A stretch of 64,000 nt of DNA, taken from the NCBI RefSeq assembly GCF_003018115.1, contig NZ_CP027458.1. One strand, written 5' to 3'. Position numbers: made by a program. This stretch comes from Escherichia coli (GTDB lineage: Bacteria; Pseudomonadota; Gammaproteobacteria; Enterobacterales; Enterobacteriaceae). Of the stretch, positions 26,601 to 32,600 are shown in pieces. Position 1 is the stretch's first letter, and each line of letters opens with the position of its first letter.

Positions 26601-29600
26601 AGGAACACCGTTCAGAACACCACCGTTGAAGCCATTCACTTCAACATCCAGGCGGGTCGGCAGAACCGTCAGCAGGTCAAACGGCATGGTTTTTTCCGGC
26701 AGTACGTTGTCACACAGACGGTTCCACCACACCGATACATCCTCGTTACTCCAGAAGCCACACCAGTCACCTCTTTTTGCGGTGAAAAGTACGGTGATGG
26801 TATCCCTGACATCGTCCGGTAATCCTTCCCAGCGACGCTGTCCAGTACCGCTCTGCAGCCAGAGTTCATGCAGCATCAGGCAGTTTTGTTCATCCAGCAG
26901 TACACCGTTCTGCAGGTGTGTCAGCCAGCGGGTGAACGCGATATTCTCCGGCGATACAACGCCACGCCCGGCAGCCGTCAGTCCGGGGCATGGTTCAAAC
27001 CGCACATCTTCAGTGGTCTGCAGAAGTCCGGCACTTCCGGCCAGAAACAGCTGAATACCTTCATTTATGGCGCGGCGATAAAACGGTGTGACGGCACCAC
27101 TGGCCAGTCGTTTAATCTCAGCGATCTGTGCCGGTTCACCAGAAAAATGCATACGGTTACTGCACCAGTTTGGCATGGGAATTCTCCTCTCACATGCGGC
27201 CTCCATCAGGCCGTGCCGGCACGTTAACCGGGCTGCATACGAATGCAGGTGCGGCCCCGAAGCCGCAGCGCGTGGAGGAGGAACGACGAAACGTGACCGG
27301 GTGAGGAGGCCGGCGACAGCGACACACTTGCATCGGATGCAGCCCGGTTAACGTGCCGGCACGGCCTGGGTAACCAGGTATTTTGTCCACAGAACCGTGC
27401 ACAAAATGCTGTGGATAAGCTGGACACAGCACTCCACAGCAGGCATACAGCCACACCCTCAGAGAATTGATCGTTTTTTAGTCAGAACAATGACATTTGA
27501 CTGTGTGCGGATTCAGTTATTAGAATACTGTATATGCATACAGCAAAAAAGAGAAGGGAGATGAGAACATGATCCGCATTGAAATTCTTTTCGACCGCCA
27601 GAGCACAAAAAACCTCAAATCAGGCACACTTCAGGCGCTACAGAATGAAATCGAACAACGTCTGAAACCACACTACCCGGAAATCTGGCTGCGTATAGAC
27701 CAGGGCAGCGCCCCGTCTCTATCTGTCACAGGAGCCCGCAACGACAAGGATAAAGAACGTATCCTGTCTCTGCTGGAAGAAATCTGGCAGGACGACAGCT
27801 GGCTGCCTGCAGCATGAGTACCGTTTATCACCGTCCGGCTGACCCTTCAGGCGATGACAGTTACGTGCGACCGTTGTTTGCCGATCGTTGCCAGGCCGGT
27901 TTTCCTTCGCCTGCCACGGATTATGCTGAGCAGGAACTGGATCTGAACAGCTATTGCATCAGCAGACCTGCAGCCACCTTCTTTCTGCGCGCCAGCGGTG
28001 AATCGATGAACCAGGCTGGCGTGCAGAATGGTGATCTGCTGGTAGTGGACAGGGCCGAAAAACCACAACACGGGGACATCGTTATCGCTGAGATCGACGG
28101 TGAGTTCACCGTCAAACGACTGCGGTTGCGCCCACGCCCGGCACTGGAGCCGGTTTCAGACAGCCCGGAGTTCCGCACACTGTATCCGGAAAACATCTGT
28201 ATTTTTGGTGTTGTCACTCACGTGATACACAGGACGCGGGAGTTACGCTGATGTTTGCATTGGCTGATATCAACAGTTTCTACGCCTCATGTGAAAAAGT
28301 TTTCCGCCCGGACCTTCGCAACGAACCGGTCATCGTACTCAGCAATAACGATGGCTGTGTGATCGCGCGCAGCCCGGAGGCAAAAGCCCTTGGCATCAGA
28401 ATGGGGCAGCCCAGGTTTCAGGTGAGACAAATGCGCCTGGAGAAGAAAATACATGTATTTTCCAGCAATTATGCGCTGTACCACAGCATGAGCCAACGGG
28501 TTATGGCTGTTCTGGAGTCGCTTTCTCCCGCAGTTGAGCCCTACTCAATTGATGAAATGTTCATTGATTTGCGGGGGATAAATCATTGCATCTCTCCGGA
28601 GGTTTTTGGTCATCAGCTCAGGGAACTGGTAAAGAGCTGGACAGGACTCACCATGGGGGTGGGCATTGCGCCTACAAAAACGCTGGCTAAAAGTGCACAG
28701 TGGGCAACAAAGCAATGGCCACAGTTTTCCGGTGTGGTCGCGCTGACGGCAGAAAACCGTAATCGGATCTTGAAGCTACTGGGGCTGCAGCCAGTTGGTG
28801 AGGTCTGGGGAGTAGGACGCAGACTGACGGAAAAGCTGAATGCGCTGGGTATTAACACAGCACTGCAACTGGCGCAGGCTAACACGGCATTCATCCGGAA
28901 AAACTTCAGCATCATTCTTGAGCGTACGGTACGCGAACTCAACGGCGAGTCCTGCATATCCCTGGAAGAAGCACCACCGGCAAAACAGCAGATTGTCTGT
29001 AGTCGCAGTTTTGGTGAACGAATCACAGACAAAAATGCCATGCACCAGGCTGTTGTTCAGTATGCAGAGCGGGCCGCTGAGAAACTACGTGGGGAGCGTC
29101 AGTATTGTCGGCAGGTGACGACATTTGTACGGACATCCCCCTTTGCAGTAAAAGAACCCTGTTACAGCAATGCCGCTGTGGAAAAGCTTTCATTGCCACA
29201 CAGGACAGCCGGGACATTATTGCCGCCGCATGCAGAGCCTTAAACCATGTCTGGCGTGAAGGGTACCGCTATATGAAGGCAGGAGTCATGCTGGCTGATT
29301 TCACACCATCGGGTATAGCGCAGACGGGATTATTTGATGAAATCCAGCCCCGTAAAAACAGTGAAAAGTTAATGAAAACACTCGATGAACTGAACCTGTC
29401 GGGAAAAGGGAAAGTGTGGTTTGCGGGGCGAGGATCCGCCCCTGAATGGCAAATGAAACGGGAAATGCTATCGCCTTCGTATACAACACAATGGACTGAG
29501 ATCCCCATTGCTTCATTCTGATATATCAGAATAATTTTTTCATTTTAAGACGCACATCATTCATTGCCTCCTGCACCGAATCAGTAGCAGAAGGAGGCAT

Positions 29601-32600
29601 TTTTTCAACAGATTGCGAAGCACCGAGTTCAGTCAACACAGCTCTGATATCGGCCTGAGAAGGCTTCCACCCAGTCGTCTGACTGAGTAAGGTTACAACC
29701 TGATCTGCTGAAAACTCCTTGCTCAAAATGGCTGTCAGCAATACAGGCAGGCGAGGATCAAGTTGGTGTAACGCCATTCCAGAAATAAATGCATTCCGGA
29801 ACAGCTCACCACGCTCAGAACGCGGAACGGACTCTATCGCTTCCAAAGTTTGAAAGTCTGCAGCTTTTTCCGGATGCAGATAAAGTGTGTATTTTTTCCT
29901 TTTCCGTTCATCGTCCACAATATTACTCCTCTTTGAAAGCCGCGATAGCTTCAACCAGTGCTGTCTGTGGCGACTCCATCATCACTACTTTTTGCCCAAG
30001 ATGGTGCCATGCCGTTTTTATCGAATCATAGATCAACGGGGCCCCACCACCGACAACATAAACACGATTCACATGATGGAAATCACCGAGCTCATTGACT
30101 ACTTGCTCCCCCAAACTGGCAATAGCCCCCTCAATGGTATTAAGGACAAGATCAGTTTTTGTTTCGTCATTTATAACCTGCCGAACAAAGTCCGGGTCAT
30201 TACGACGTTTAATCAATTCATCTGCAACGAGGAAACTGGTATCACTGGATGCCATGCGCAATGCACTCATTGCAGCTTTCGTAACTGAAGACACACCAAT
30301 GCCAGAATTACCATGAATGGCACTTACAGAGTCAAATTGACCAACGATAACACCAACATCAAGCGTAGTGCCGCCAATATCAACTACCAGCGATTTTTCG
30401 AACTGACCAACTTTATCCACGACCAGACGAGAAAACACAGCTGGCAATGATTCAGGCATCACATCAACGTATTCAATGGTGAAAACATCGCCTTTATTAA
30501 GACGAATCGGCCTCATTAAATTCTCAATTTTACGCTGAATGTTGAGTTCATTTTTTTGACACTCTTTCGTGTAGAACTCACTGATAGGCAAAGTCACAGT
30601 CAATGATACAGGCTGAGGCGCTAATCCACTATTCAGTAAAGCGTGATGCACAGCTAACAGGTTAACATCCGTATATTGATACTCAATATGAGTCGTAAGA
30701 ATAGATTGGTTGCTAACTTCATCATACGTGTATTTTTTACCGTCCAGTTCATAGTTAAATGTCTGGCGAATTCCTAACCCGTCAACCTTCCAGCCATGAC
30801 GAAATGAGTTTTGCGACAACGACTTACAGATTTTCCCATTATCATTCCATGCCAACTTGATTGTTGTTGAACCATCATCGCAGTATACGTTCATCTATAG
30901 CCCCTTAAATACTCAATCTGAGTAAATCACTGTTTCTGGTTGCAAGGTAATACTCAATTTGAGCACTATCATAGTTATGAAATCACAAAACACAAGTATT
31001 ATTTATTACATCATATGACACACTTCATATTTCACACTTCATAAATATGAACGCATATTGACACCGCAGGTTACCGTGTCAAAATATCATCATACTTCAC
31101 ACATCACATTTATGAGGTTGCAATGATTACTGTAGTTGGTGGGAACAAAGGTGGTTCAGGGAAAACTACCATTGCATCAAACCTGGCTATTGCTCTCGCA
31201 AATAAAGGAAGGGAAGTCTGCCTGTTAAACGGAGATCTACAACGAACAGCCGCAAAGCATCATGCGGAACGAGAAGCTGCAGGACTGTTACCAGCAATAA
31301 CCCTTGTTGAGAAATTTGATAACCTGACACAAACACTACAGGCTCTGAATGAAAAGTTCGATGATGTAATAGTGGATGTCGCAGGAAGAAACTCAAAGGA
31401 ATTCATAACGAGTGGAGTTGTCGCACATCAAATAATTGCGCCACTACAGTGTTCTCAACCAGATCTGGATACTCTTACAGAACTAGAACAACAGATAGAC
31501 GCAATGCGTAACCTTAACCCGGAACTTAAGGTTTATTGTTTACAAAGTATGGCAACAACCAATCCGGTTTTGAGGGGAAATGAGAGAAAAGAATTCCTTG
31601 AATATCTTGAAGAATTCCCAACAATTCAAGTCCTTGATTCAGTTATTTGTTTCAGAAAAGTCTATCGCGATTGCATGAGCAACGGCACCGGTGTAGTAGA
31701 AACGAACAATACAGCAGCCAAAGAAGAAATTGAACATTTAATGAATGAGGTATTTGGCCCATGGTGAAGAAACCCAGCCAGCAAGCATTAAACAGAGCTG
31801 CAGTTACGGTAGAACAAGCAGAGGCTCTGGCTCAGCGCCTTGCGGATAAACCATACGGCGCGCCGGAAAAACCCGAACCAGAAAAACAATGTCGGACGAC
31901 AATCTCTCTTGGTGAAAGCATGCTTGTCGCAATAGAAGATCTGGCATTGAGGAATAAACGCAATGGTAAAGATCCAAAAAATGTAAGTGCCATCGTCAGA
32001 GTAGCCCTTGAGCAATACTTAAAAACACTAACGTAATAATCAATAAGTTATTACTTATGAAATCACACTTGTGAATTCATACTGTTTAAGCCCCCTTGCA
32101 TACAAGAGATCACATATTGCAGTGGTCTCTTTTTTTACAGAATAAATCACAATTCATAATTATGATTTGTGAATTATGCGTGTCTGTTTTTCAGCATTGT
32201 GACCGCATCGGACTCAGGCATCGAAAACTGCACCCGGTGCCGTGCAGCCACATCCAGTGCAAACACCTTCGTGTAGACCTCCGTTGAGCTGATGGACTTA
32301 TGCCCCATCAGGCTCTGCAGGACCTTCAGCGGTATACCGGCATACAGCATGTGCATCGCATAGGAATGGCGGAACGTATGTGGTGTGACCGGAACAGAGA
32401 ACGTCACTCCGTCAGCAGCAGCGGCGGCAACCGCCTCCCCAATCCAGGTCCTGACCGTTCTGTCCGTCACTTCCCAGATCCTCGCTTTCTCTGTCCTGCC
32501 TGTTCGTTTATTACGCCGTTCCATGGGGATTTTCAGTGTTGCCACCATCGTCTGCAGCTGGCTGACGTACCAGGAGTCGGAGAGCGGAACCAGCCGGTGA

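Follow-up and report, generated by a model that had tools for sequence, protein, structure and literature searches.

Do two partition systems of different types that stand back to back around one repeat-rich intergenic region represent two centromeres side by side, or a case of cross-regulation between the systems? The question is raised by a locus on contig NZ_CP027458.1 of Escherichia coli (NCBI RefSeq assembly GCF_003018115.1), of which we analyzed a stretch of 64,000 nucleotides, hereafter the window. The initial annotation of this DNA had drawn a span of 29526-32036 that held an actin-type ParM/ParR-like pair on the minus strand and a Walker-type ParA/ParG-like pair on the plus strand, diverging from a shared 228-bp region. 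We find that 29526-32198 is almost certainly a near-identical copy of plasmid pB171's double par locus, comprising two complete segregation machines, par1 and par2, and one common cis-acting region. The genes lie where they had been placed and both pairs are intact members of partition families; the span encloses the four genes and the shared region, parC1, and leaves outside it a second centromere, parC2 (Table 1). The two proposed explanations are not exclusive, and both reportedly match the conclusions published for pB171.

The link to pB171 was made through Protein Data Bank (PDB) entry 2JD3, which is pB171 ParR (PMC3074162), and through published parC2 primers. A PDB sequence search showed ParR of the window to be identical to 2JD3, there named 'StbB', at 129 of 130 residues; the one residue that differs is K66 in the window and E66 in 2JD3. 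Primers FS35 and FS36, with which Ietswaart et al. amplified parC2 from the pB171 par2 plasmid pGE2 (PMC4270457 S2 Text), agree with the window at 39/39 positions (32019-32057) and 30/31 positions (32168-32198). Their lone mismatch falls in the last parC2 hexamer, which reads TGTGAA in the window and TATGAA in pB171, both of which fit the consensus. An AscI site inside parB, at ~31849, is the same site that was used in the published construct (PMC4270457 S2 Text). Since ParR represents the par1 half of the locus and the primers represent the par2 half, both halves are pB171 sequences, and near-identity holds on either side.

Several properties of the pB171 locus are documented. It combines a type II and a type Ib system (PMC9800825, PMC13245405), and repeat arrays of par2 flank the operon on both sides (PMC7602700). 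The same paper states that the upstream array also regulates transcription, in a sentence that cites work on pSM19035. The segment parC1-parA-parB-parC2 stabilizes and equi-positions mini-R1 (PMC4270457), and PMC9426499 and PMC7602700 cite work by Ringgaard et al. on the locus. The double par locus of the window is an already described system, and nothing in this copy departs from the published one. Its architecture, its two centromeres and its regulatory cross-talk were reportedly published for pB171 between 2001 and 2007, by Ebersbach & Gerdes (2001) and Ringgaard et al. (2007).

The replicon that carries this copy can also be named. The locus region is 100% identical to NZ_CP027343.1, and the RefSeq coding sequences of that record have identical coordinates for all four par genes (offset 13223). 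Given this identity and the coinciding gene coordinates, the window is part of that ~131-kb IncF plasmid of Shiga toxin-producing E. coli (STEC), which bears ehxCABD, espP, saa and subAB.

Gene pairs of two partition types

The minus-strand pair has the features of a type II system. ParM matches the Pfam families StbA_N (6e-64) and ParM_N (6e-44), and structures of R1 ParM match it at E 7.6e-76 over residues 2-295. In this actin-fold ATPase the two phosphate-binding motifs are found at residue 6 (DDGST) and residue 172 (DIGGTT). Directly downstream, with 4 nt separating its start from the parM stop, lies the gene for the ribbon-helix-helix (RHH) adaptor ParR, which matches Pfam Plasmid_stab_B (2.5e-29) and has no NCBIfam match. 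The start codon of parR is GTG, with AGGAG 8 nt upstream; a longer TTG open reading frame (ORF) extends to 29954 and is not the annotated start. The Pfam and R1 ParM matches, together with the ParR identity to 2JD3, bear out the assignment of this pair as ParM/ParR.

The plus-strand pair has the features of type Ib. ParA carries a deviant Walker A motif (KGGSGKT, residues 9-15), falls within the ~200-230-aa size class and has no N-terminal DNA-binding extension. Its best NCBIfam match is NF041546, 'ParA family partition ATPase' (4.1e-34, 117.9 bits); it also matches PHROG 164, 'ParA-like partition protein' (4e-40), and ParF (4dzz, 206 aa) aligns end to end with its residues 8-210 (2.5e-7). Seven nucleotides (ATGGTGA) are shared by the end of parA and the beginning of parB. 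ParB is, as modeled, a ribbon-helix-helix protein, with a weak match to Pfam RHH_1, and this predicted fold in a small centromere-binding protein agrees with type Ib. Searches with ParB returned no PDB sequence match at E<=10, with no ParG chain among the results, and no NCBIfam or PHROGs match. The Walker-type designation of ParA was therefore correct, whereas 'ParG-like' holds for the fold and size class of ParB only.

In RefSeq, ParA of par2 goes under 'division plane positioning ATPase MipZ' or else 'AAA family ATPase', and ParB of par2 under 'hypothetical protein' or else 'CopG family transcriptional regulator'. Read literally, and with ParA scoring under the NCBIfam ParA_partition cut-off, these product names would describe a MipZ/MinD-like positioning ATPase paired with a CopG-type repressor, for which the hexamer repeats around the operon would be mere operators. 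We give this reading next to no credence. ParA matches ParA_partition at 4e-34, against 1e-8 for MinD and 7e-5 for MipZ structures; a second hexamer array follows the operon, a position in which an operator would serve no purpose; and by primer match the same DNA is parC2 of the validated pB171 par2, which stabilizes mini-R1 (PMC4270457). The RefSeq names hide a textbook partition system and leave pB171 par2 unrecognizable from annotation.

A different doubt concerns whether both systems work. The two look redundant, and genes do decay in this region, where the adjacent umuC is frameshifted; one system could be functional and the other a decaying passenger kept by linkage. This we consider very improbable in view of four full-length ORFs with catalytic motifs, of exact protein sequences that each occur on at least 1000 contigs, and of a pairing that plasmids of Enterobacter and Pectobacterium keep at ~70% DNA identity. 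Moreover, across three diverged loci (41-86% protein identity) the proportion of nonsynonymous differences (pN, 0.08-0.39) is far below the saturated proportion of synonymous ones (pS, 0.73-0.88) in all four genes, which are under purifying selection. Neither pair is inactive by these measures, and neither belongs to a non-partition family.

The distribution of the locus was counted among 72,556 plasmid records. At a threshold of at least 95% identity, parAB is present in 991 records and parMR in 988, with almost identical genus breakdowns, and a 2,801-bp query that spans the locus is covered to at least 80% in 981 records. Thus, par1 and par2 are almost always inherited together. The double par system occurs on ~1.4% of sequenced plasmids, including virulence and resistance plasmids of STEC, enteropathogenic E. 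coli (EPEC), enterotoxigenic E. coli (ETEC), Salmonella and Klebsiella. One carrier of a near-identical copy, pEA8_2, is an IncI-gamma/K1 plasmid, indicating a transfer of the module from one replicon type to another.

Repeat sets, promoters and a proposed mechanism

The intergenic region between parM and parA is exactly 228 bp long, as had been stated, and its repeats could be mapped precisely. Two sets of direct repeats had been described there; two unrelated sets are present, of which the second consists partly of inverted hexamers. Set 1 comprises two copies of AATACTCAAT[C/T]TGAG, 14/15 identical and 41 bp apart, and a 15-nt repeat with at most one mismatch arose in 0 of 500 mononucleotide shuffles. 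Set 2 is the hexamer WTCAYA, which occurs 11 times in parC1, in either orientation, mostly in a 7-bp register and in three clusters (dinucleotide shuffles: mean 2.3, maximum 7; 0/5000 reached 11). Nine further hexamers lie in parC2, the 137 bp that follow parB (dinucleotide-shuffle mean 1.1; 0/5000 reached 9). Relative to a window-wide density of 2.5 WTCAYA per kb, the hexamers of parC1 and parC2 are ~20-fold enriched, and no other part of the 64-kb window is as dense in hexamers as these two regions. Tandem Repeats Finder reported period 7/14 arrays in both. A scan of 29000-33600 against Rfam at E<=1 gave no match, and hence no known RNA element in parC1 or parC2.

Relatives of the locus assign each set to its gene pair. 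Plasmids of Enterobacter hormaechei (L002) and Pectobacterium versatile (L005) carry umuC, then parR-parM on the minus strand facing parA-parB on the plus strand, at ~70% DNA identity; both have two ParR-type repeats beside parM and hexamer clusters at the same relative places, in surroundings that have diverged. Plasmid 2 of Providencia alcalifaciens (L006) contains parAB only, and there the hexamer cluster before parA is kept and no ParR-type repeat is found. Conversely, pSTW0522-66-1 of Enterobacter roggenkampii (L007, 3737-5051) contains a parMR pair of the pB171 type, accompanied by three ParR-type repeats but by no hexamer clusters. Taken together, the Providencia and E. roggenkampii loci show that each set of repeats stays with the gene pair it belongs to.

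The ParR-type repeats are thus no chance occurrence, and four loci keep them together with parMR; the binding of ParR to centromere repeats is known from the pB171 literature (PMC9426499, citing Ringgaard 2007). The hexamer arrays adjacent to the par2 operon are likewise enriched and conserved with parAB, and they vary in 7-bp units: the parC1 array is 7 bp shorter in pEA8_2 (L010, 51-271), through deletion of one unit of cluster b, and the parC2 array of pPM4-5 (L009, 1193-1343) has a 14-bp unit duplicated. Within-hexamer single-nucleotide differences among near-identical copies are C/T changes at the degenerate Y position, which keep the WTCAYA consensus. Cluster c is kept in near-identical form in the E. 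hormaechei and P. versatile plasmids and in the par2-only Providencia plasmid. Centromere activity of the par2 arrays has been established by experiments on pB171 (PMC4270457, PMC7602700).

Two of these relatives show further peculiarities. In the Providencia plasmid, at least 10 tandem copies of ttatgatttatgcr, a 14-bp unit (2 x 7), lie downstream of parB (L006, 3505-3660) and form an expanded parC2-like array; an IS3-family element is found upstream of parA, where parMR would be. In the E. roggenkampii plasmid, parMR adjoins an unrelated ParA gene and a small co-directional gene, a different type II/type I pairing, and the other repeats at this locus (gattgcagcaagat-like) probably belong to the second system there.

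The par2 promoter, P2, is conserved in the E. hormaechei and P. versatile plasmids and is flanked by clusters b and c. For par1 we propose a candidate promoter, P1, whose -10 box is itself an ATCATA hexamer of cluster a. The P1 hexamers and their 16-nt spacing are kept in the same two plasmids despite a diverged spacer, and the -10 box is also found in the E. roggenkampii plasmid. Transcription from P1 would start near the upstream ParR repeat, a layout that may explain, in simple structural terms, how both ParR and ParB could repress par1. The -35 box of P2 lies within a palindrome, TTGACAccgcaggttaccgTGTCAA (31058-31082), as a result of which the minus strand carries a promoter-like match in mirror image. 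This match (TTGACA at 31082, a 16-nt spacer and CAATAT) was considered as P1 and rejected because it is not conserved in the E. hormaechei plasmid.

Table 1. Features of the double par locus, in window coordinates
Feature	Position	Strand	Description
parR (stbB), par1	29526..29918	-	130-aa RHH centromere-binding adaptor
parM (stbA), par1	29923..30894	-	323-aa actin-fold ATPase
parC1	30895..31122	.	Shared centromere and promoter region
ParR-type repeat copy 1 (AATACTCAATCTGAG)	30908..30922	.	Motif kept beside parM in L002, L005, L007
ParR-type repeat copy 2 (AATACTCAATTTGAG)	30949..30963	.	Conserved as copy 1
Candidate P1 (par1)	30968..30995	-	TTGTGT (30995-30990), 16-nt spacer, TATGAT (30973-30968)
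Hexamer cluster a (ATCATA, TATGAA, ATCACA)	30968..30987	.	Predicted ParB-type sites overlapping P1
Hexamer cluster b (ATCATA, GACACA, TTCATA, TTCACA, TTCATA, TATGAA)	31010..31051	.	7-bp register, upstream of P2 -35
P2 (par2)	31058..31085	+	TTGACA, 16-nt spacer, (TG)CAAAAT; 10/12 match, extended -10 TG
Hexamer cluster c (ATCATA, TTCACA, ATCACA, TATGAG)	31089..31116	.	Between P2 and parA ribosome-binding site
parA, par2	31123..31767	+	214-aa small Walker-type (type Ib) partition ATPase
parB, par2	31761..32036	+	91-aa centromere-binding protein, RHH as modeled
parC2, second par2 centromere	32037..32173	.	Hexamer arrays and hairpin; pB171 primer match
Proximal hexamer cluster, parC2	32056-32081		
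Terminator-like hairpin with T-run, parC2	32104-32131		
Distal palindromic hexamer cluster, parC2	32146-32173		Four hexamers

From this arrangement, we propose how the two systems might operate. In par1, ParR dimers would bind the two AATACTCAATYTGAG repeats beside parM to form a partition complex, which would capture the ends of ParM actin-like filaments that in turn push sister plasmids apart; ParR binding at the parC1 repeats would also autoregulate P1. In par2, ParB would bind cooperatively, through its predicted RHH fold, to the WTCAYA arrays in their 7-bp register in both parC1 and parC2, and the resulting complexes would stimulate nucleoid-bound ParA-ATP such that plasmids become evenly spaced over the nucleoid. 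The putative ParB hexamers flank P2 and cover the -10 box and spacer of candidate P1; with sites at both promoters, ParB could repress both operons, whereas ParR would repress only par1. In pB171, ParB reportedly represses the par1 promoter as well.

Several points weigh against this account of the locus. The 117.9 bits of ParA are below the 180-bit equivalog cut-off of NF041546, and P1 is an 8/12 consensus match that was returned by a relaxed scan. The attribution of the distal parC2 cluster to par2 is less secure than that of the proximal one because the distal cluster is also found in plasmids without parAB. For this copy, binding, repression and stabilization are presumed from the literature or by inference. 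What we established directly is the identity and integrity of the genes, the anatomy and statistical excess of the repeats, their conservation, and the co-inheritance of repeats and gene pairs.

The distal part of parC2 and neighboring genes

The hairpin and distal cluster of parC2 have a distribution of their own. Together they occupy 76 bp (32100-32175) that are found in 1507 plasmid records, compared with the 991 that carry parAB. At least 500 records hold this distal piece beside a resD-like integrase gene while lacking parAB at >=95% identity, and among ~15 such records listed there was no parAB even at ~65-70% DNA identity. In pAPEC-O1-ColBM (L008, 3001-3076), the piece abuts colicin M genes in place of par2, and the record contains no par2-like DNA elsewhere at blastn sensitivity.

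On the simplest view, the orphan piece was left behind by recombination and remains attached to the module of the resD-like integrase. Should ParB bind it, however, a co-resident plasmid of the pB171 type could position the carriers in trans, or the carriers could titrate that plasmid's ParB and so cause partition incompatibility, although we regard either as unlikely. The arrangement would then amount to a centromere-only strategy of hitch-hiking or interference. An overlap of parC2 with rfsF, the resD recombination site, was considered and judged improbable, since the F plasmid map places rfsF upstream of ccdA rather than downstream of resD.

The ccdA, ccdB and resD-like tyrosine recombinase genes form a minus-strand operon (32174-33509) that ends 1 nt after parC2. 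With the par loci placed between umuDC on one side and resD and ccdBA on the other, the region is one compact maintenance block (umuDC, par1, par2, resD, ccdBA). Both the E. hormaechei and the P. versatile plasmid retain the flanking umuC and integrase genes. Upstream of parR in the window, the frameshifted umuC (28251-29521, 1271 nt) is split into overlapping ORFs at 28251-29243 and 29105-29521; no coding sequence is listed at this span in the gene table of PLSDB, from which pseudogenes are omitted, and the umuC homologue is intact (423-424 aa) in the E. hormaechei and E. roggenkampii plasmids.

Further away, a 652-aa 'ParB/RepB/Spo0J family partition protein' is annotated between psiB and ssb in the conjugative leading region (12921-14879); it probably belongs to neither of the two par systems. 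The annotation also places a group II intron reverse transcriptase (ltrA) at 24010-25710.

Comparison with known partition systems

The par1 half resembles parMRC (stbAB) of R1/R100, which likewise has an actin-fold ParM, parR immediately downstream, and a direct-repeat centromere upstream of parM that overlaps the promoter. The likeness has limits. R1 ParR has no detectable sequence match to ParR of the window in the PDB search, and the centromere region of the window, in contrast to that of R1, is common to a second partition system. The R1 centromere consists of ten 11-bp iterons, whereas the window has two repeats of ~15 nt. Walker-type and actin-type modules are also combined on one plasmid in R27 (IncHI1), as Par1 and Par2, although the proteins differ. 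The R27 modules are not known to have a common centromere/promoter region. These double partitioning modules were described by Lawley & Taylor 2003, as cited in PMC13245405 and PMC9800825.

For par2, the counterpart is the ParF-ParG-parH system of TP228. Both pair a ~200-aa Walker ATPase with a small RHH protein, as modeled for ParB, that has a flexible N-terminus, and parH is likewise a centromere of short degenerate box arrays (PMC3130281). However, ParB of the window lacks sequence similarity to ParG at E<=10, such that the likeness is one of fold and size class, and the repeats of the window are hexamers in a 7-bp register rather than tetramer boxes, in two arrays that flank the operon.

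The closest system remains pB171 itself. No new biology follows from the copy described here, and its value lies in the annotation of the par2 genes. In pB171, the same four genes stand in the same divergent order as in the window, with two ParR repeats upstream of parM and with parAB flanked on both sides by hexamer arrays. The replicons differ: pB171 is an EPEC adherence-factor plasmid, whereas the locus of the window resides on the ~131-kb IncF plasmid of STEC.

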